Source: Catajapyx aquilonaris (lineage: Eukaryota). From it: a stretch of DNA of 39,800 nucleotides. Positions 720 to 37,426 of the stretch are shown here, one piece after another. Each line of letters opens with the position of its first letter. Positions within the stretch are counted from its first letter, which is position 1. A program made the position numbers and the translations under genes. Location: the NCBI GenBank assembly GCA_000934665.2, contig JYFJ02003605.1:1-39800 (forward strand), written 5' to 3'. Under the pieces are notes generated by a model that made no database searches, was not told the DNA's origin, and saw only the letters and a program-made list of their open reading frames with translations.

Positions 720-1443
720 CAGGGTGGGGCAAAAGTCATGGGCGGATAAAAATGATGCAGCACGGCGTAAGTAACGAATGATTATATTTAAAAACATTTG
801 CACTACACAGAGGAAGATATGCTATTTATGGATCAATGTCCAAAAAAGTCACTTCTTGAAAACAACACCGGATAGATGTCCACCTTTGCGGGCAACACAT
901 CCCTGCAAGCACAAACCCTTCATAACGCGCTCCAGCATGTCCAGGGGAATGTTTTTCACGGCATGTCTGACCTGATCCTTAAGATCAGCCAATGACTGAG
1001 GATGTGTGGTGAACACCAAACTCTTCAGGTGCCCCCACAAGAAGAAGTTGGGGGTGGTCAAATGCGGCGGCCATGGAATGTCCCCAAATCTTGAAATGAC
1101 CTGCCCGGGAATCACCCGTCGCAAGACAGCCATGGACTGACTGGCTGTATGAGATGTTGCCCCGTCTTGTTGGAACCATATCTGCTCTCGATTGGCCACC
1201 TCCAGAAGGAAGAAATCTTGCAACATCTGGATGTAGCGATCTCCATTCACTGTGACAGCACGACCGCGAGCATCCTCAAAGAAATACGAATCCATAATTT
1301 CAGAACAAGAAGTGACTTTTTTGGATCTTGATCCATAAATGGCATATCTTTCTCGTGTAGTGCAATTTTAAAAATATATAATCGTTCGTTACTTACGCCA
1401 TGCTGCCTCGCTTTTATCCGCCCATGACTTTTACCCCACCCTG
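720..1443 (-). mobile_element. Non-autonomous DD41D (rosa/Visitor) Tc1/mariner element with a C-terminal transposase fragment
   Basis: ORF 849-1295(-) has WFQQDGATSHT...ISRFGDIPWPP---HLTTPNFFLWGHLK. Restoring the missing RSP gives 41 residues between the last two catalytic positions (the last D is now N). ~140-bp inverted ends begin CAGGGTGGGG. Confidence 0.88.
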
Positions 1444-17000: not shown

Positions 17001-20000
17001 GTAGTGCTTGGACCCCTCTTGGGTATTGCAAGGACCTTTATTTATTAAATTTTGTTTCATTATCCAATTCACTTTACACTGCTGTGTTGTTGGAACCAAT
17101 TACCGGTATAAAACTGGTATTTCCTGTAAAATTATGTGTGATATGTTCTGTCTCCCACACCTTACAATCTTTGTGGGGTGGGAACGAGTTCACTTAGTTT
17201 ACAATGGTCCAACTATTTGTACAATTACGCATTAAAGAAGTTTCATGAGAGCATAGTATATTATAAGACACTCAATTCAGGATCAATTCAGTAGTATGAT
17301 GATGGAATCATGTAATAGTGAGCTGCTATATTGCATATCCTCGAGCAACCCAGGGTCCACCATCATTCATTGATAACATTTACGAAAAGTGGAATAATAC
17401 TTATATTCACAATTCCAAACCTTGTTAATGAATGTTAATGCTTTGCTAGTTGACATTATCCTCTACTTTCATATGTTTTTGAGAAATTAGGTGAGGGAGG
17501 AAAGGTCCGAGTTAAAGTTGTGATAACATGCATCTTTATGTAGGCCACCTACTCTTGAATACCATGCTCTTAGGGGGAGCAAACAGTCAATTTGGGAGCA
17601 GGATGAAAGCAACACATGCGCTGAGAAGCTTCATGTGCAAGTAGCCTGGTTTCTTGCATGCAAGGAAACCTGGAGACAAATTTCAAACTTTCAAAATTAG
17701 TGTAAACTTCCTCCTCGTAGCACCATAAAATCCAAAGCCTGGACAGGCCCCCACCTTGCCTTTGTTTCTGTGCCCTGTTATCCCACAGAGTCTATAGTGC
17801 ATACCACAACCATGGTGAAAAATCCTACAGGTTCCGTCATAACAACAGTTGCTCCTAAATTGCTGTGGCACACCTGCCATCGAGCGGGAAAACGTGATAA
17901 TTGGAATTCGCATACAGGTTGCTTCGATGCAAGTAGCCGCTTTGCACTCGGCCTTAAATAAAGTGATAGAAGGATGGTGGAAAATTCTTGGTGAGGTCAT
18001 ACCCCAGTTGCCAAAATGCTAGAGTAGGGCTGGAGGCTAGGATCAGTGGCAGTTACTCTCTTTGGCAGCAGGTATTGAGAGCATATTGTATGTGGGCCTA
18101 CAGTATTTCATATGAATTAATAGGCATACAAACTGAAAGGGTGGAAGCAAGCAGGGCTGACTGCAAGAATGGTCCAGTGCAGTGGCATAGGCAGGGGGGT
18201 TGGGGGTGGTTGTAACCNCCCCCCCCCCCCCCCCCCCCCTGGACCCAAAAAATATAGTTCCAATCCGCAATTTTAAGGTGTTAAAACGCACATGTGCAAA
18301 TATTGTAGCTTATGTGTGCTTGAACAGCAAAAAAAAATTCGCCTGCGGCAGGCCTCTTCGTTCTACCCTCATATAACCCCCCCCCCTTACAAATTTCCTG
18401 GCTACGCCGCTGGTCCAGTGTGATGGAAGTAGGTTGTTAACTCATTGCCTGGGAATTAACACTTTACTAACTGCTCTGAGTGTGTGTGACTTTTTTGTTT
18501 AGCAGGGTAAAGGAATTGCGTAACTACATTTTGTTCAAAGTGTACAATAAGTAGGGGAGTTCTCAATTAGTCATTTTTAACAAATGTAGTCACTGTATTA
18601 TGTATTGATTATAAGTTGCTAATTAATGTGAACTTTGGCTGTGTCGAATTATAGGGAAGTCGGATACTTGGCTGATTAGTAACTCATGATTCAAAATGCC
18701 TCTAGTACTTCTTCTCACCTCTGTAGGCTTGTCCTGAGGCAGACTCCTCCTCTTGATGGCCAAGAGACCCTTATCTTCAATATCATAACTCATTTTGTCC
18801 TGCCATCTGATGGGTGACTGTGACCATCAAGAATGAGTTTTTTTGTGGGGTATTTTGAAGGTAGTGGCCAGAAGGAAGCTGTAATTTGCTATATTTAACT
18901 TGGGAGGACCTTCTAGATTCTAGAACATGCCCATGGCCAACCACAGACCTCCATATACCATGCAAGTGAAAAATTAATGGAGACACTATGATTTCACATA
19001 GCCTACCTGATGAAATTGGGAGAGGCAAGGGGGAGTTAGTGAGAGAGAGATCCTGATGACTCAGGAATCAGTCAGAATGCTCAGACAAATGGGAAAACAC
19101 CAGGCAGCTTTGCATGAAATATGTACTATTGCATTAATTGATACAATTTATTGCAGAAGGGGATCTATGAAAATGTTGAGTTTTTAACAAAATTATTTGG
19201 GTGTCACATCTCAATTAGGAGAGTAAAGAACGTCCTACTCACAATCAATAAATGTTCAAAAATTTTGGAAATTGTTTGTGCCAATACTAATGCAGTCCAC
19301 TCCAATCAAAATAGACCAATGTCCAAGATTTTATAATTTTGAGGGGTTCCCAGAAGCTGTCTGCACCATATAGGGTAAAAACAACTTAGATAACTAAAAA
19401 GTGCAAAATATTGCTGCCATTTCTGCAACAAACCCGCTCCAACTGAGGATTGCTGAAACAATTCACAATGACTGTAATGACTTAAGTAAGTCATCAATAA
19501 TTTTTCCAATTGCAGAGTGGTGTCTACGAATATCGCGGCATATTAGCAGCTCTTCGCACCATATATCGCACTGAAGGATTCCGGGGACTTTGCTGTGGGC
19601 TAACACCAACTCTCATCCGAGATGCACCATTCTCTGGCATTTACCTCATGTTCTACACTGAAACAAAGAAGATGGTTCCATCCCGTAAGTATGCTAAAAA
19701 TGCAAGGTCATGTAAATGTCATTTCTACAACTACTACATATCTGCAGAGTGGCTGGATTCAAGCGCTTCAGCTACTGTGCACTTCACATGTGGCATATTT
19801 GCTGGATTAATGGCTTCTGCTGTGACACAGCCTGCTGATGTCATCAAAACCAAGATGCAACTCTATCCAAACAAATTTGATCGGGTTCCAGAGGTCGTGA
19901 TATATGTATACAAGGTAAGAATGAAGCAGGGTTTTTATGCTAGCTTATGAGGAATATCTGTTACCGATACATCATGGGTAATATGACTTTTTCTGCATTT

Positions 20001-25632: not shown

Positions 25633-25810
25633 TTAGACAACCCTTTTCACTGCATATTCATCTAGGGCCAGGTTCAGGGTCGACATCGTCATCCCTCCTT
25701 CTACCAACACAGAAAATATTCCCATATCTTGCGCGCGCTGAATACCTGCCAGCCCATTGTCGAAGTATATCATCTCCTTTACGTTGGAGAAATGTGAGTC
25801 GAACATGATG
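25633..25810 (-). CDS. MDP1: MDP1-like last coding exon (IMFDSHFSNVKEMIYFDNG...AVKRVV*)
   Basis: TTTCCTCCTAACAG acceptor in phase 2; TAA stop. Confidence 0.85.
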
Positions 25811-26512
25811 CTGTTAGGAGGAAAAATATTTAGGATACTGTAATAAATTATAACAATATTCGAAATGACACGAACCATCAGACCAAGTAACTGTTGTTGA
25901 TTAACTAACTACTGTATAACTAACCTCCATTAAGCGTTGTGTATGCGCCTTTGTCATTATTCCCCTGATGGCTGATGGCATATTTAGCAAGTTTCCCATA
26001 ATATTCGATCAGATATACAAATGTCACGCAGATTTGGAACATGCGACAATCATCCTATAGGTGCAGTTATTTTAATTCAGAAGCTCACAGCCAGTATGTG
26101 TCGTAGTATCGTATATGTACAGTACGTATATTAGTTATTACACTGTTCTACAAAATAACACTTTTTCTATTTTCTGATGATTTCAATAGTGATTCCTATT
26201 GTACATTCTGCGCTGAATCCGAATATCCGATCAGAAGGTTTCTGTCAGGCACAGTTTTTGAGATATATCGTTTTAAAGTTTGGAACGGTTTACTAGGGAT
26301 CTTTCTGAATCAAGTGGACCTAAATGTTGCTAGACCGTCTCGGATCTTGGTGAAAATAATCAGATGTACGCACCTATTCCTTAATGCTGCTTATAAAGTT
26401 TCAGCCATATTGCGAAATACCATGACGAGGAAAAACTCGCAAACATCTGGAAATTGCTGAAAATGAGGCATTTTTTGGAGAATTTTTTTCGCTTAGTGGA
26501 AGTGGTCAAAGG

Positions 26513-26609
<97 letters not shown>

Positions 26610-29600
26610 AAAGAATGAGAAACACCAGGAAAATGCGCCTATGGAATTGGTTTTCCGCTACAATGTAAAGATAAATTTTTATAGCATTTTATTGGCCACT
26701 TTCTCAGTCACATGCCCAGGAATTGTTACCTCAACAATAATATTAGTGAAGTATTTGCGTTACATCAGTCATATTCGGTGACACTAGTTGTGACGGACGT
26801 CACCGCGCGGACAAAGCCCACTAGGGTGCGATAATAACCAGCACCTGCCTCGCCTCCATTGAAGTGGGTCCAGCCCTATATGACTGCTATATAGGCCCAC
26901 GTATAATACTGTACGTATGTACCACATCTGACGAGGACAATCAGGCTTTGGTTAGTGGAGTCGAAGTATACGTGCTGCTTGGATGTGTAAAAAGATGAAT
27001 GCTGATAGAGTTGGCTCAAGAAAAGACTGAACGGCCACGTGTTCTTTCTGACACCTTCCACCCCCCCCCCCCCTCCCAACAGCACCTCGTCCCCTATGTT
27101 TGCCCTGAAGAAAAGAAGTGTACAGATGCTTGGTGGGAAATTTTGTTTTCAAGGTGGGTAATGTTGTATGCCTAGTTTCATGTGTGTTTGGAAGTCGACT
27201 TCCAAATCCCACGAAATCCAGTGCGGGGGGTTTTCCCCCTGGACAGACCATACGATCCGAACTCATGTGAGGTGGCCATCGCGCCTCGGTTAGCGTAGTT
27301 GACGGATGTGTTGAATTTACAGCGATTGTAGCCTATACATGTAAAAAAGAGAGGCGAAAGACTCGCGTCGATATGAATGGTGGCATCTCTATATGGGAAC
27401 ATGAAAAGTGATGGACAATAATTGAGGCGTTGACATGGGAAAGGGCGTAAGTCACAATTAAGATTTTTTTACAGGGGCTAGGCAAAAACCCAGTTTTGAC
27501 AACACCGCTAAGGGCCGGTTGCACCAGTCGCGGTATATGGGACGGTATATGGAAGAACCCTGCACCGCGGGTACACGGTATATGCCATGAAAAACCGCGG
27601 GTTTATTCCATAGCGTTGCACCGGTCCAGATAAACGGGGGGTTTTCGGTAGTACGCTGGCCCATGAGAGACGTAAGCGGGCAAAAATTTTGGAGAGCGCT
27701 GATTGGATCGCAGCACCCGTGACGCAATCCGTGACGTCATGGAAGTATGGCTATTCGACTAGTATCTACGGCAACCATGCGGCAGGGTTGCCACCTGGTG
27801 TCACACAGTACACGAAATCCCTAGCACCATGACGACACCATAAACCCGCGGTATAAGCAACTTGTGCTGCAGGATCGGCGGGTAGATGGATTCGGCGGTA
27901 GATGGGAGGGAGAACGGGCCGTTTTAGAAAAACCGTAGGTGGCGCAACACTTCTCGCGGTATACCGGAGTCAAAACCCGCCGTTTTCCATATACCGCGAC
28001 TGGTGCAACCGGCCCTAAGCAGATTTTATTACACAAAAGATTTCTTATTGTTGGATATTTGTTACACAAAGCCATGAAAAGTCAAAGTAAAAGCAGTTGA
28101 TGAGTTTAACATTTAAATGTAGGCTACTTTTTTTCTATTTTGTGGCACATTTGTTATTGTTCCATGTCAACTCGAGGGGATATTGCTGATATAGATATGT
28201 TGATATTATTACTAAGTGGGATATTGTTGAGGGGAGCAGGGAAATGAGTTACGGGTGTTGTGCGAGTTAGGCTCATTTTCGGAAGCTGAAACACGAGGCA
28301 TTAAATTCCTTGTAAAAAATAACCTCAGGTATGTTAGTTTAAGGCGGTGCGGTGTAGGGGCATTCCCCTGGATTTCTATGGCGAACAAACACACAAACTT
28401 CCTCAAATATATATACAGTTGAATCCAGATATAACAAACTTCAAGGGACAGTGGAACAAGTATGTTATAACCGAGGTCTATTATAGCCAAATAGCCACTT
28501 TTGCAACGAATGCACAAAGTTTTCTGCTTATAATGCACACTACTGCATTTGATAATGAAACTATAGCCACAAACATGCAAAATGAGTTGACCTGTAAATT
28601 AGGCAGGATTTTTTTTCAGCCAATTATCTTCTGCTGTCTCCATGCCAAACATGCCAGAAAAATATTGATTTCGACCTTTTAGGCCAGTGTTAGATCAGTG
28701 GCAGGTGGGAAAATCACTCCCTGTCCCGTTTGTACTATGCAGTGCTTTTTTTCGCACGAGAAAAGAGGTTGAGTAACCAAAAACAGCATATTTTCTCACC
28801 GAAGCGACAAGAAAATGGTATATGTTATATATCAGGAGTTAAAATACACAAGGCCTTATGGATGTCCTGACCGGCCTTTCGAGTATGTTATAACCGAATA
28901 TCTGTTATTGCCGAGGCTGTTATATCCGGATTCAACAGTATGAGATAAGATGAATAAAATCAGTATTTTTCTCTCTCATTATATGCTACATTTTATCCGC
29001 TCCGTCATTCCATTCTCTTTCGAGTCTAATAATTTCCATTTTGTTGAAAAGCACATTTCTGGCGATTGTCATATCGCCAAAAAGTGATGCGTTCGCCATA
29101 TTGCATTTTCGTTCACGATCCGTAATTTGCCCAGTTTTCTTTCTCCGAGTTTATCGCGGACCAGTCAGTAAATAGGTACCGTATGTCACTATGACTTTGC
29201 TTGGAAGTGTCGTTTTTGGAATATTATTCACGCTTGATTTTAAGGAAGGAATATTTCAACTATAAAATGTCATACACAGGAGGGAAAAAAGCAGGAAGGA
29301 AGGGACATGTCCCATCCATTGTTAAACTTGTTCATTTGCGTGCCATTTTCAGGATATTTTGACATGTGCCTTCGTATCCATTAGTGTTACTGTGGTAGAA
29401 TTAGCATGCTGTGATTTATATTGAAGCACTGCACTGGTTGAAAGCTGTCTTCCTTTTCTAAGTTAAGAAACAAAGGTAAGGAGACGGGTGTCCACTGCGG
29501 TGGTCGGCAACTTTGAAAGAACTAGTGGAAATAGGTCTCAATATCACAACATTGAGAAAACAACCACTGCTTCCAGTAGCTTCCCCATGTCTCGCCACTC

Positions 29601-32600
29601 TCCCCTGCTTATTATCAACTAGCGTACCCGTATAGCCAAAATTTGGCAAAACCTGCAATGAGGACGACATGATTGGTAATGAAAAAAATGGAATGGGAGG
29701 GCTCACGTATAGCTGGTCGTAAGACGGGGTTGAAGAATTGAGTTGCATTGAATCAATGGACATATACTGTACACTTCCTGAATCGGACACGAGAAGAGTT
29801 TTCATAACTTATGAAAACTCTTCTCGTGTCTATCGCGAGGTTTGAAACCTCGCGATATGCAACATTGTGTGTAAACATTATGTTGTTGGAGAGAAATGTT
29901 CCTTGTTGAGCAGTGGGAGTATAGTGAACACTTTGACTTGGGTTGGGTTGCGAGACCGGGACAATGTGGCCATGATTGTGAGAAGAGAGGTTCATCCAGG
30001 GAAATGCTTACGTGCGGATCCGGCCCTGCGAGTTGTTGATCGCCATGGCATAGGCTGAGATCACATTATGTCAATGAACATATTCTAAGACTTTTGCATC
30101 CGGATCCAGCAGGCTATGATTAAGGCTTATATAATAATAGCTGATAGGGGCATATTTGAGTGACGCGGCAACATGAGGGATGGAGTTGCCCTTTGTGTAG
30201 GTAGTCAAGATAGGTTTTAGCCTGGAAATTTGAGATAGAAAGCTAATTTTTGGTACAGTTGTCCTTCATGATGTTCTCAAACAGTGTGTAAAAGTCCCGG
30301 AGTGTCCGACGCTTGCTTCGTCCGGGACAACGCAAAAAGTACCTATGTGACACTAGTGCAGGAAAGATACGATAAAATGCCCCATAACCCCCAAATAAAC
30401 TGCAATGGAAATGAACTTTTCACCATTTGTTCAGAGAAATGTGGAGAATAACATATCCAAAGTTCACAGCGATTGGTGGGGGGGAACTCGCCGCCATCTT
30501 GGAAAATGGCGGCGAAAAGGGGTGTTTTGGTTTTAGATTTTTCTCGTAAATGATTGCATGTATGTGGATTTATGTAGAATACAAAATGAAAGATCCCACT
30601 AGTTCGCACATATTCAGTCCCTATCACTATTTTGTAGAGGGAATATCTACAAAGTTATCGCCGATTATATTGACGCCGCATAATCACTCTACGAGGATAT
30701 TATGCACATATTATGCTGTTTCTACTCAAGTGTAATTATGTGAATATTAGTCACTTATCATTACTTACTCTAATAATAGAGACGAGCTATCATTGAGAAA
30801 TGGTTGGTAATGATAATAGCTATTATAGCTATTATAAGTAACTATTCTTAATAAAACAAGTAATCCTCATGTATGATATTTCAGATAGAAAGCTAATTTT
30901 CAGTACAATTGTCCTTCATTATGTTCTCGAACAGTGCGTAAAAGTCCCAGAGTGTCCGACGATTGCTTCGTCCGGGACAACGCATAAAGTACCTATGAGA
31001 CAGCTACTTTAGTACTCGACAGTTTCATAATTATATTAGCATAACCTTCCATCGCTTCCATCAGACCGTCGCATAGACGTCCGCGGAGGCTCGAATGTGT
31101 GGAAAGGAATACTACACACACGTAAACTATCAGAATGCAATTTGATGGCAGTAGTCGCAGGCTCGCGGCACACTGGCAGTAATTTGCGGAGAAAATGTTG
31201 CGAAATTGATACCCGATGGCTTTACAACGGAACATTGGTCGCCTTTGAGCATATACTATGCCTCGGATTAACCGAAGCAGGTTGGCATAGTGGATAAGGC
31301 GTCCGACTGCTAATCGGGAGGTCCTGGGTTCGAATCCCGGGGCCGGCAACTTTGACCGTGGTTTTCTGTGGTTTCCCACGGTCCTTCCAGGAAAATTCCG
31401 GAGTTGCTTCCGTAATTAATAGGCCACAGCCGTTTCCTTCCGTCCCTATGCTATATCCAAAGAGCACAGTGAAATGAAAGCAAAGAGTTCCAGGCAAAAC
31501 AAACTTCCCCCCTAAAGAGCCGATGGCTGATAACGGGGTATGAATTATTATTATTATTATACTACTATGCCTCGGACAGCTCGGTATGTTGTTCTGCGTT
31601 GCTGATTTCTGAGCTCAACGATGCATGTCGATACTTAATGCACCGAAAATTAAGTGCCATACAGAGTGAAGATTGAACTCGCCCAGCGTCCTGGACTATA
31701 CCCTGAGACGTACAAAGGTATCTTAGGTAAGAAAAGTACCCATGGACGGATATAATTTCAATGAAAATGTAACTGTTTCACACGTTTCTGAGGCAATAGA
31801 CACAAGAAACTCAGGATTTCTGCTTGTAGTGGAGGTGACGGGTAATGGATGCCAGTGCTTGGACCATTCATCGGCCTGCAAAAGATACAGATACAGGTTT
31901 CATCATATTGAACTGTAGAGTATAGCATAGGTCAGAGTTCATGCACTGTTATTCTCACTATATACCCAACCTTTTCGGGCCTTCGTACCCCTTTGAGAGC
32001 AGTAATACTTCTCGTAATACACCCTACCAGGATGGAAAATTTACTGAATCCTTGACATTTAACTAATCCGTGATAATCGTGATACCTATACCTTATAATC
32101 AATATTTTGGAACCAGGAGTATGATGAAGTGAAAGATTATTAAATCATTTTTCGATTATAATCCAGCTATATTTTCCTTTGTGCAAGCCACTTATGGGCT
32201 GTGCTATGTAAAAAATGTTTCCATTTGGACTCAGGGGTACTTAGCTCTGTTACCCCAGGAGGGGCACCTCGTACTCCCTGAGGGTACAGGTACCCCTGGT
32301 TGGGAACCCCTGCCTTAGATGTTCCCTTCCTCCTCATATGAATCACTTGCTATGGGAGTGGGACTGTTGTTGCAGTCTCTACCTCGACAGTGTGCACACA
32401 CATTGCCGAACTTGGCAAGTTTGATCACTCGCAGTCACATGAATGGCAGGATGAGGACGAAGGTAACATCTAAGCTTCTAAGATCTAAGGTACCTTGAGA
32501 ATCACAGTGCATGAACTCTGACTTTTACTCTACAGTTCAATATGATGAAACCTGTATCTGTATCTTTTGCAGGCCGATGAATGGTCCAAGCACTGGCATC

Positions 32601-35600
32601 CATTACCCGTCACCTCCACTACAAGCAGAAATCCTGAGTCTCTTGTGTCTATTGCCTCAGAAACGTGTGAAACAGTTACATTTTCATTGAAATTATACGG
32701 TATCAGTTCGTTTAAATCCGTCCATGGGTACTTTTCTTACCTATACCTTTGTACGTCTCAGGGTATAGTCCAGGACGCTGGGCGAGTTCAAAATTTCGCA
32801 ACATTTTCTCCGCAAATTACTGCCAGTGTGCCGCGAGCCTGCGACTACTGCCATCAAATTGCATTCTGATAGTTTACGTGTGTGTAGTATTCCTTTCCAC
32901 ACATTCGAGCCTCCGCGGACGTCTATGCGACGGTCTGATGGAAGGTTATGCTAATATATGAAACTGTCGAGTACTAAAGTAGCCGTCTCATAGGTACTTT
33001 ATGCGTTGTCCCGGACGAAGCAATCGTCGGACACTCTGGGACTTTTACGCACTGTTTGAGAACATAATGAAGGACAATTGTACTGAAAATTAGCTTTCTA
33101 TCTGAAATATCATACATGAGGATTACTTGTTTTATTAAGAATAGTTAGGCTACTTATAATAGCTATAATAGCTATTATCATTACCAACCATTTCTCAATG
33201 ATAGCTCGTCTCTATTATTAGAGTAAGTAATGATAAGTGACTATTATTCACATAATTACTTGAGTAGAAACAGCATTATGTGCATAATATCCTCGTAGAG
33301 TGATTATGTGGCGTCAATATAATCGGCGATAACTTTGTAGATATTCCCTCTACAAAATAGTGATAGGGACTGAATATGTGCGAACTAGTGGGATCTTTCA
33401 TTTTGTATTCTACATAAATCCACATACATGCAGTCATTTACGAGAAAAATCTAAAACCAAAACACCCCTTTTCGCCGCCATTTCCCAAGATGGCGGCGGG
33501 TTCCCCCCACCAATCGCTGTGAACTTTGGATATGTTATTCTCCACATTTTTCTGAACAAATGGTGAAAAGTTCATTTCCATTGCAGTTTATTTGGGGGTT
33601 ATGGGGCATTTTATCGTATCTTTCCTGCACTAGTGTCACATAGGTACTTTTTGCGTTGTCCCGGACGAAGCAAGCGTCGGACACTCCGGGACTTTTACGT
33701 ACTGTTTGAGAACATCATGAAGGACAACTGGACCAAAAATTAGCTTTCTCTCTCAAATTTCCACCTTTAGCTGTTTTTCAGTCTCGATTGACTGGGCGTA
33801 TGGCTATATGGCACAGCAACTGTCATCTGTTGGGCGACACGGTGGCGGAGTGGTTAGCGCCGCAGCCTTCCACCTCTAAGGTCCAGAGTTCGATCCCAGG
33901 ATCGGACAGAGTGTGCTTATGTGGATAGAGTTTCGATGGGTTCTGTCCGTGTACGCGTGGGGTTTCTCGGGGTTCTCCCGTTTCCTCCCACAATCAAAAT
34001 CCATCACAGCGCAGGCAATGATTAAAGTCGGTCAATTATAAGATGATCCCCTAAAAAGCTCAAGGAGGCTTATCACAGGGCATCCATTATCTCCACTGTC
34101 ATCTGTTGTGGCCCCGCCAGGCAGGGTTCGTCGCCCTGCATGATATTTTTAGGTAATTCGGAGCGGAAGCGGAGCTGGGCGACTATTGTGGGTTTTGTAT
34201 TGGCAACATTTACAGTACTGTCCGTCTTGTGGCGGCGGAGGCCAACGAACGTTATTGTGGCTTTGCCAACCTCCAATCCCCTGCTGATCCCACCGCTGAT
34301 ATCTTGTTTGCTTGCTCCGGGAGGTTCATGCGACGCCGCCAAATAAGTCGCGGGTTTACTCTAATCTAAGCTATCCACTGAAAATCATAAAAGTTGCTTG
34401 ATCCTGATCCAAGATGGCGGAATATTTAGAAAGTGGGGCTGAAAGTAGCAGCTTACATGATAGGTTTCTGAATATTCTGTGGCTCAGATTGAAATATTGA
34501 ATCAGTTGGCAGACTTCCATTGGCGGGTAAGGAAATAGGTGGCGGTTAGGACTTTTGGCGAGAAGGGAAAGTGGCGGCCAGATGAATGAGGGCCGTGACC
34601 AAAAGGTAGTGGCAGCACGTACTCCCTTGGCGGCCCCTTGGTGAGTGCTGTGTCACCTTTTGGTCACGGCACTAATTCATCAGGCCGCCACATCTGGAGC
34701 GTTCCGGAGGCGAAAAAAATAAGGCTATTATTATAGGGGGATTATTACGGATTATAACCCAAGACTGCATCGGATGTTTAGACGTTACCATTACATTATT
34801 GTTATGGCTTGTCAAACCTATCACGAAGAGAGACGCAACAGGTATATGATGGTAACGGCTACACTTTTCCTCGCTTTTCCTGTAGCCCTGGATTAGCCAA
34901 CCTATGCACTTCGGACATTTCGGAATATTAAAACGTTAAAATATTATGTGCAGAAGACGCTTACACCTTGAGTAAGACATCTACGTTGTTCCCATACACA
35001 GCATCATGGTATATGTAGTCGTCCCACTCCATCACCTTCTTGATGCATGGTACGGTATCGTTGGATATTAGATGTACACATTTATGGATAACTCCAACCT
35101 GGATTCCCTTATCGAAGAGTTCTTTGAGTACATCGGTTGATTCCTTATGAGGCCACCAGAGGGAGCATATGTCATCTTCAATGTAATGGCCTGATCTGAG
35201 AAAGGCATATAGAGGTATAGGTAAGTTGCTTAGTTTTGACACAAAATATGCATTGATTGCCTTACTCATGGATATGTAGAGGAGGAACAACTTTATCGAT
35301 GTCGAAGTGATTCAATAGAGTTCCCTCTGAAATGAAACGAGTGGTCATTCACTTCGAACATATGTCAGGTAGAATATTATAGTTCAACAATACGAGAGTG
35401 AAGAAGACATAAACATTGAATTAGTGTGTCGCACTAAACTACAGAATATAAACAACTATTTATACAGCATTTAATATTATTTTGTATTTGGTATTATGTA
35501 TAACCTGGTATAAGACTATAGTGATCTAGGGATGATTCATAAGGGAGGATGTGCGTGGGTTTTACACATATTATACTACGCCATTACTTGAGCATCCGTG

Positions 35601-37187
35601 CACTCTAAATTTCAAAGAGTTAATTTATTACTCCTTTTGGGGGTTGATTTGGTTTAACTCACACTTAGTAAGTTCAACACGAAAAAGGGTTATAATATCA
35701 GAGCGTAACGCGTTTTGGGGGTTACATAAACCCTCAAGCTTCAGTTCTGCACTTTAACCATAACTCTTTTGCAGCAGTAGACATAACTGATTTTGAGTAG
35801 GTATCGAAAAACGGGGGGGAAACGCGCAAAAACCCTGTAGACCTGTGCAAAATTTCACTGTTCTATGGGTTCTTTTCCGTTTTGCCCCATTTTAGGTCGC
35901 GAGGAAGGGTTGGGACCTTGAACCGAAAAAATTTCTGCCTGCGGCGGGCCCTGCGCCCCCTCCCCCAGACACAATTTGCGTCCTGGCCCCCCCTAACCTA
36001 AATCCTGGCTACGCCCATGCCTCTTACCAACGACTCCGCCCAAATAAACATTCTTCACAATCTCCTCTTCCTTCATGCCGCTTCATCCTCTCTACATGGC
36101 CAAACCACCTTAGAGTAGACCTACACACCTTATCTTTAACAGTCTCCTTAACATTACACCTCTGCAAAATCTCCTCATTCCTAATCCTATCGATCTTGGT
36201 AACCCCACAAACAGCCCGGAGATAACGCATCTCTGTAGCCAACACCATATTCTTATGCCAATCAGACCAAACCCACGCTTCACTACCATACATAAGTGAA
36301 GGAACAATAACGTGAGAATAGACAGACAACCTACAGGCAGAAGATAAGTCCTTATTTCTAGAAAACTTACTTGTGGCACCTATAACTTATTTAATAATTC
36401 AATTAATATATTGTTCATAAAATAGTATTACTTTACTACACTCTTTCCACTGACAACTGAGTAAATTTCTGTTGCAGCATTGTTAGTATTACAATACTAT
36501 TAGTCTGACTGACATAAATTCTATGACCTCTGTTTCTTGGGGGCAGAAGAGATTTCACCAAATCAATCGGGGTTATTTTAAAAATAATTTAATCTAGTAG
36601 ATACTTGTATGACCTTTTCCTATGTATATCAAGTGCATATTATTGAACATAATAAAATTACAGTATTGTCATATCTGTTGCGCTCTGTCCCGCTGTGGTA
36701 TTTTCTATCTGCCCAGTTTCAGCTGTACAGTAATTGCTGGTGAAGCGGTGGTACCACACAGCTGAATTAATGCACTACGGGATTTCTTTCGCTGAACAAT
36801 GCATATCCAGATTCAAGTGATATCTGATATGTTTTGATGCCAAATTGAAAAGGGGAAGACCACGCAACACAAGCAGTGTCCGTATAGCTTGAAGATCTAG
36901 CCATCAATAATATTCGAATGTACCACTGCTAATCCCCTGACAAAATATTACGTCAACTCGAGACGAGGGGAGTAGTGGGGGATAGGGGAAGGGAGGTGGG
37001 ATGGCGGGAAAAGGGGCTGGCATGCGGAGTGAGAAGAGGAGGTGCGGGGAAGGACATACCTCGTACATACAATCATAAAGGTATTTACAAACTTTGCCTC
37101 TTATAAATATACAAATTCGCACTACTTACCCAGATAAAAAACGGCGATCTTTGGCAGAATTTTAAAGGATGAAATCGGTTCAGGCAT
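25633..37187 (-). CDS. MDP1: Magnesium-dependent phosphatase 1-like HAD protein, catalytically degenerate paralogue, 175 aa
   Basis: complement(join(25633..25810, 34965..35195, 35266..35326, 37130..37187)); GT-AG introns in phases 1/2/2. LPKIAVFYLEGTL..VVPPLH..DVLKELFDKGI..MIYFDNG..GMTMSTLNLALDEY aligns with recalled MDP1 LPKLAVFDLDYTL..VDPPFH..EVLKRLQSLGV..MIFFDDE..GMNLQTLSQGLETF. Confidence 0.85.
26516..26607. repeat. (AT)n microsatellite, ~46 units
   Basis: Uninterrupted alternating AT run. Confidence 0.97.
27512..28015. mobile_element. PIF/Harbinger (Tourist-like) MITE
   Basis: TAA-GGGCCGGTTGCACCAGTCGCGGTATATGG ... CCATATACCGCGACTGGTGCAACCGGCCC-TAA. Confidence 0.92.
28416..28938. mobile_element. 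pogo/Tigger-type MITE
   Basis: TA-CAGTTGAATCCAGATATAAC ... GTTATATCCGGATTCAACAG-TA; internal GTTATAACCG repeats. Confidence 0.85.
29619..30060 (-). mobile_element. Helitron 3' fragment (PIF1-like helicase C-terminus plus CTAG end)
   Basis: Minus-strand AYAMAINNSQG (cf. AxTINKSQG), ISLDEPLFS and THNVAYREV (cf. TxNVVYxEV). A small hairpin GCCAAATTTTGGC is followed by CGGGTACGCTAG|T ending at 29619. Confidence 0.75.
31268..31562 (+). mobile_element. tRNA-derived SINE, family D
   Basis: A box TGGCATAGTGG, B box GGTTCGAATCCC, (ATT)n tail and 14-bp TSD TACTATGCCTCGGA. Confidence 0.9.
31965..32312. mobile_element. hAT-type MITE, left end truncated, in the foldback spacer
   Basis: CCCAACC ... GGTTGGGAACCCCTG with GTACCCC subterminal motifs. 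Confidence 0.6.
33833..34094 (+). mobile_element. tRNA-derived SINE, family B, full length
   Basis: A/B boxes TGGCGGAGTGG and GAGTTCGATCCC; 14-bp TSD ACTGTCATCTGTTG. Confidence 0.9.
34571..34691. repeat. Imperfect inverted repeat (small MITE-like hairpin)
   Basis: GTGGCGGCC-GATGAAT..GCCGTGACCAAAAGGT mirrored by ACCTTTTGGTCACGGC..ATTCATC-GGCCGCCAC. Confidence 0.65.
34965..35195 (-). CDS. MDP1: MDP1-like coding exon 3 (SGHYIEDD...VDVLLK)
   Basis: CCTTTCTCAG acceptor, GTAAGC donor, 231 nt, phase 2/2. Confidence 0.85.
35266..35326 (-). CDS. MDP1: MDP1-like coding exon 2 (EGTLLNHFDIDKVVPPLHIH)
   Basis: TTTCATTTCAG acceptor, GTAAGG donor, 70-nt downstream intron. Confidence 0.85.
36022..36385 (-). 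mobile_element. RTE-clade LINE fragment (C-terminal part of RT ORF)
   Basis: VPSLMYGSEAW...EMRYLRAVCGVTKIDRIRNEEI...LRWFGHVERM is the characteristic RTE post-RT region. Confidence 0.9.
37130..37187 (-). CDS. MDP1: MDP1-like coding exon 1 (MPEPISSFKILPKIAVFYL)
   Basis: ATG at 37187, GTAAGT donor (phase 1); possible acceptor TTCATTCTAG 11 nt upstream of the ATG. Confidence 0.8.
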
Positions 37188-37426
37188 ATCTCTCTTACCT
37201 AGAATGAATAGACTCTGTTACTTTCGCTGTCAAGTGATGTTGTCATTGTTGGTTAGCCTACTTATTTCATACGGCGTACAGTGGGAGAAATTAATGGAGT
37301 ATACAAGTATTGCCGCCTGGCGGAGCTTTTCCTCAACATTAGTGGTTCCCAACCCTTTCGGGTCATGGCCCGCTTTTATGAGAGTCAAGTAACCTGCGAC
37401 TCCCCCTCCCCTCCTCCTCCTCCGAG

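Follow-up and report, generated by a model that had tools for sequence, protein, structure and literature searches.

A putative pseudophosphatase gene derived from the MDP1 family in Catajapyx aquilonaris

Dead enzyme homologues are common, and to our knowledge few of them have been described in the HAD phosphatase superfamily. One of the families of active HAD enzymes is that of magnesium-dependent phosphatase 1 (MDP1; Pfam PF12689, Acid_PPase; human structure 2wm8), which Fortpied et al. are said to have described in 2006 as a protein-fructosamine-6-phosphatase. Here we describe an MDP1-like gene on the minus strand of a 39,800-nucleotide (nt) stretch of contig JYFJ02003605.1 of Catajapyx aquilonaris (hereafter the window), whose spliced product of 175 amino acids (aa) has lost most of the catalytic residues of its family. 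According to PMC8069645, MDP1 is a C0-type HAD phosphatase; the first Asp of HAD motif I (DxDxT) is the nucleophile and the second the acid/base, the Ser/Thr of motif II and the Lys of motif III stabilise intermediates, and the acidic residues of motif IV bind Mg2+. In a 2026 survey (PMC13216928), TIMM50 is termed the only known human HAD-family pseudophosphatase, and the survey itself adds a fungal NIF-domain pseudophosphatase with a DXNXT motif. Both proteins belong to the FCP/NIF branch and not to Acid_PPase. Tim50 (TIMM50) and the product described here would have in common that they are HAD-type pseudophosphatases, but Tim50 comes from another HAD family (NIF/FCP1-like) and is membrane-anchored, ancient, conserved and essential, whereas our product is small, seemingly soluble and so far without relatives of its own form. 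The fungal protein is comparable in being of HAD type, lineage-restricted and degenerate in motif I; only the second Asp is altered in it, whereas here the nucleophile and motifs II-IV are altered as well.

The preliminary description of this locus had joined four exons into one uninterrupted frame of 175 codons, and this observation is borne out in full at the coordinates given (exon boundaries in Table 1). The window consists of animal-type DNA, in which the introns are long and repeat-rich. The joined minus-strand frame is 528 nt long and stop-free, with an in-frame stop 10 codons upstream of the ATG (open reading frame 37122..37217). All three introns have consensus GT-AG boundaries (donors gtaagt, gtaagg and gtaagc; acceptors ..tttcag, ..tctcag and ..ctaacag). 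Exon 1 carries the first half of the degenerate motif I (..KIAVFYL) and ends at the donor G/gtaagt, exon 2 carries the remainder (EGT) and LNHFDIDK at the position of the WPFWVDTH loop of the family, and exon 4 encodes the C-terminal strands and helix. Because intron 1 cuts the motif (FYL/EGT), FYLEGT is found in no single reading frame; IHK, GNN and YFDNG are all present. When every GT donor and AG acceptor near the six splice sites was combined (10,800 combinations), 64 distinct stop-free in-frame proteins were obtained, among which the 175-aa model ranked first against the MDP1 profile introduced below. The runner-up, at 58.4 bits, uses an in-frame acceptor for exon 4 that lies 27 nt upstream and adds nine residues (184 aa); both acceptors, 25810 and 25837, may be used. 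Exons 1-3 show a contig depth of 15-34, which is that of single-copy DNA, and carry no variant letters in the DNA contigs; these depth data come from four DNA runs of one sample, possibly the source of the assembly itself, and no RNA run is listed among those that contain the stretch.

Homology to MDP1 was examined by profile searches. A degenerate pattern for the family motif I was scanned over metagenome contigs and gave 112 loci, from which 27 full-length frames were read; a profile of these 27 frames aligns the spliced product end to end (27.2 bits). An alignment of the five frames nearest the model was then run as a profile against the protein collection and returned 2571 proteins with E of 0.001 or lower. 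The 120 top-ranking of the 2571 matches, all with PF12689, mostly arthropod and nearly all named magnesium-dependent phosphatase 1, served as the reference set (the 120 relatives). Against a profile built from them the spliced product reaches 64.7 bits in a colinear full-length match, which spans residues 6-172 of the product and positions 10-171 of the profile, while 1000 shuffles of the product peak at 7.6 bits. In a six-frame scan of the window with this profile (2064 stop-free segments), significance is reached by the frames of exon 4 (E 3.9e-8) and exon 3 (E 0.0034, hmm 56-108) alone, and the two matches are colinear on the minus strand; the frames of exons 1 and 2 score at noise level, yet they fall at the correct colinear profile positions. 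Pfam PF12689 matches exon 4 alone at E 1.3e-5 (25.5 bits, profile positions 124-167 of 169), and exon 3 alone has no Pfam match. Among solved structures exon 4 finds human MDP1 (2wm8_A) at a weak E of 0.096, with kemiYFDNG paired to sqmiFFDDE and the C-terminal 43 residues of the product aligned with 2wm8_A residues 138-180; exon 3 gave just five weak, unrelated matches. The 175 residues lie within the length class of MDP1 (about 155-190 aa), and core residues common to the product and the family are V16, F17, L19, T22, L23, P34, P35, D47, W97, Y100, G108, F133, D134, G147 and G156. Judged by its sequence, the product is a true MDP1/Acid_PPase homologue, as had been proposed at the outset, and it is of animal MDP1 descent. 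Two further observations were made in these searches. Exon 4 gave three matches among representative proteins, each of them a long repeat protein of bacterial type (SdrD_B and similar), and all three were dismissed as spurious. The highest profile score (357 bits) belongs to a psyllid protein (P0004) of 330 aa, about twice the usual length of MDP1, which may have two MDP1 domains in tandem or come from a fused gene prediction.

The motif changes FYLEGT, IHK, GNN and YFDNG had been noted before by comparison with MDP1; we repeated the comparison with the 120 relatives and it holds. Their six catalytic positions read D-D-S-K-D-D in 117 of 120 cases (two of the other three are gapped and one is DNSKDD), while the product reads Y-E-H-N-D-N, so that five of six catalytic residues are lost and the HAD catalytic motifs are indeed degenerate. 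In motif I, D18 and D20 (each present in 119/120 relatives) are replaced by Tyr and Glu, which gives Y-L-E-G-T. The A-S-R-T of motif II (76-79) is I-H-K-C, with His77 in place of a Ser that is invariant in the relatives (120/120). Lys110 of motif III, likewise found in 120/120, corresponds to Asn110 in the MAFFT alignment or to Val111 in the alignment to the hidden Markov model; the product has a Lys116 six residues past this position, which might conceivably stand in. In motif IV, F-F-D-D-E (132-136) is Y-F-D-N-G, in which Asp134 is retained and position 135 is Asn (Asp in 119/120). The WPFWVDTH loop after motif I, each residue of which occurs in 111-120 of the 120 relatives, is also replaced. 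Conservation in at least 85% of the relatives is seen in 57 columns; the product retains 24 of these, mostly hydrophobic residues, Gly or Pro, and departs at 33. Among the 120 relatives, only a tapeworm protein (P0080, the DNSKDD case) has a substituted catalytic residue, with Asn for the second Asp of motif I; its branch of 1.33 is the second-longest in the tree described below, and catalysis may be on its way out in this MDP1 as well. With the changes listed above, the product cannot act by the aspartyl-phosphatase mechanism. Since the phosphate- and metal-binding residues are lost along with the nucleophile, a role as a phospho-substrate trap is also unlikely. The product is best filed as a candidate HAD-type pseudophosphatase, a homologue of active phosphatases in which all the enzymatic hallmarks fail.

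The divergence of the product is large. It shares 20-31% identity with the 120 relatives (median 26%), compared with 32-99% (median 56%) among the relatives themselves. In a tree of the product and 57 of the 120 relatives (those named by taxon or nearest to the model; the other 63 were left out), its terminal branch measures 5.03 changes per column where the median is 0.23, or about 22 times as long, and it falls within the animals with no resolved sister, drawn to another long branch. We compared this divergence with neutral decay by random point substitution of two real MDP1 coding sequences, with 2000 runs each and with substitutions only (no indels or loss of splice sites). Of each 2000 runs, 22 and 10 were still stop-free when identity had fallen to 50%, 10 and 4 when it had reached 40%, and 4 and 0 when it was down to 30%. 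The scarcity of open frames in the simulation indicates that most of the divergence arose while the frame was protected, and the earlier statement that the locus is selected and not decaying is borne out in so far as the frame is too intact for a neutral build-up. The hydropathy of the product follows the family mean with r 0.55 over 150 columns, and with r 0.41 over the 108 columns that differ from the consensus; 0 of 10,000 shuffles reach either value. The claim that length, hydrophobic pattern and splice sites are preserved thus stands for the first two, and for the splice sites solely in the sense that they are canonical GT-AG. At 20-31% protein identity, synonymous sites are saturated against the canonical MDP1 coding sequences, and what points to selection is the integrity of the frame and nothing else. 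The best reading of these data is long-term selection on a non-catalytic product.

We therefore favor, with a probability of about 0.55, the explanation that the locus encodes a HAD-fold protein without catalytic activity that has been maintained and works by binding. Under this explanation, the locus is a real intron-bearing gene descended from the animal MDP1 family of capless C0-type HAD phosphatases, and its 175-residue product probably retains the small Rossmann-like HAD fold, on which the hydropathy correlation bears indirectly. Catalysis would have been lost by replacement of the nucleophile Asp with Tyr, the acid/base Asp with Glu, the phosphate-binding Ser with His and Lys with Asn or Val, and one Mg-binding Asp with Asn; the MDP1-specific WPFWVDTH substrate loop is likewise replaced, and selection would have kept the frame open through most of the divergence. 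The most likely mode of action would be binding via the remodelled face of the former active site, by analogy with the dead HAD domain of Tim50. The role of a "binder or regulator" that the preliminary description assigned to the product is a conjecture; its observation is confirmed and its overall interpretation is partly supported. The product is presumably a paralogue of a catalytic MDP1 encoded in the same genome, since canonical MDP1 is present in insects, crustaceans, chelicerates and a myriapod among the listed matches. If the gene is expressed and conserved in related species, the MDP1/Acid_PPase family would have its first dead member, one that shows in compact form (175 aa, no cap) how a minimal HAD fold can be reused. 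In the library searched, no paper combines "magnesium-dependent phosphatase 1" with "pseudophosphatase", and a search on HAD pseudoenzymes gave nothing on MDP1 among the matches listed.

Several results weigh against the favored explanation. Replacement has affected 5 of 6 catalytic positions and 28 of 51 other conserved positions, which is no clear excess, so the catalytic loss may reflect general drift and not a targeted change. A terminal branch of 5.03 against a median of 0.23 also fits relaxed constraint, and a long-functional gene that died only recently would look identical. The hydropathy test is in part circular, since similar residues are already favored in the making of the alignment. 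The Pfam model of the family, scored on single exons, peaks at 25.5 bits, below its cut-off of 27. Less weight attaches to two negative searches: word-based searches with exons 3 and 4 found no relative of the divergent form among longer proteins (short open reading frame fragments of related species were not looked for), and exact look-ups of three pieces of the frame found none of them in the protein collection. The gene, seemingly absent from the protein collection, may be unannotated.

The long branch bears directly on an alternative that we consider unlikely, in which the locus is an intact-frame relic: the gene would have functioned through most of its history, perhaps already non-catalytic, and would now be silent or newly pseudogenised without having acquired a disabling mutation yet. 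Such a relic would also account for introns laden with repeats (one of high copy number in intron 1, an inverted one of 1.5 kb in intron 3), for a closest same-strand AATAAA that lies about 1 kb beyond the stop codon and, as a weak point, for the lack of both a related protein and a prediction of the gene itself in the protein collection, but it has to be reconciled with 0 stops in 175 codons, no frameshift against the profile and six splice dinucleotides that are intact in good consensus context. The intact frame and splice sites mean that any neutral phase was short relative to the total divergence. If the gene proves silent, it would be a well-preserved relic and nothing more.

The number of MDP1 genes in this lineage matters for a second alternative, which overlaps with the maintained binding protein and which we regard as rather improbable: the gene could be the sole MDP1 of the lineage, and not a paralogue, having evolved very fast after its original role was lost. 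The six-frame profile scan found no second MDP1-like copy in the window, and the placement of the product in the tree, among animals and with no resolved sister, is compatible with this proposal; catalytic MDP1 with normal branch lengths nevertheless occurs in every arthropod group represented among the 120 listed matches (insects, crustaceans, chelicerates and one myriapod), which makes retention of the enzyme the rule. That the active site has been rebuilt on the HAD scaffold is very unlikely, whether Tyr18, Glu20, His77, Lys78, Cys79 and Asp134 are taken as a new metal-binding or nucleophilic centre for non-aspartyl chemistry or for a sensor or ligand-binding role specific to this arthropod lineage, or whether Asn110 and Asn135 are added to them as parts of a new catalytic or metal-binding centre. 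The maintained frame, the retention of Asp134 and Thr22 and the polar or ionisable (not random hydrophobic) nature of the replacements speak for it; against it, the 120 MDP1 relatives examined offer no precedent, and general drift accounts for the replacements equally well.

Table 1. Window coordinates of the MDP1-like gene and of repeats in and near it
Feature	Position	Strand	Length	Remarks
Exon 1	37130..37187	-	58 nt	ATG 37187-37185; codons 1-19 and first base of codon 20
Intron 1	35327..37129	-	1803 nt	GT-AG
Exon 2	35266..35326	-	61 nt	Acceptor tttcag/AG, donor GA/gtaagg
Intron 2	35196..35265	-	70 nt	GT-AG
Exon 3	34965..35195	-	231 nt	Motif II position IHKC 35089-35078; motif III position YGNNV 34996-34982
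Intron 3	25811..34964	-	9154 nt	GT-AG
Exon 4	25633..25810	-	178 nt	Motif IV position YFDNG 25767-25753; TAA stop 25635-25633
Inverted repeat, near-perfect	30223-31922 and 32526-33763			Inside intron 3
Interspersed repeat, very high-copy	~35850-36450 and 37236-37400			First segment in intron 1; summed contig depth ~70,000 vs 15-34 in flanking unique DNA

The inverted repeat in intron 3 consists of five colinear arm pairs of 153-261 nt that are 98-100% complementary, and 603 nt separate the innermost arms; a foldback-type element, an inverted duplication of recent date or an artefact of assembly could each account for it. The same intron holds a long (TA)n microsatellite at about 26500-26610, which appears as YIYIYI... 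in several frames. Run X5 covers nothing of the locus but the intron 1 interspersed repeat. A minus-strand frame at 36024-36386 resembles the C-terminal part of a non-LTR retrotransposon reverse transcriptase, and another at 849-1367 (minus strand, 172 aa) resembles the C-terminal half of a mariner-type transposase; neither has a Pfam family at E 0.01 or better, and no Pfam family was matched at that threshold by four neighboring frames with the look of transposon remnants. On the opposite strand, about 5.7 kb past the 3' end of the MDP1-like gene, a mitochondrial carrier gene has an exon at 19501-19947 (plus strand), in which Pfam Mito_carr matches two repeats at E 1.9e-23.

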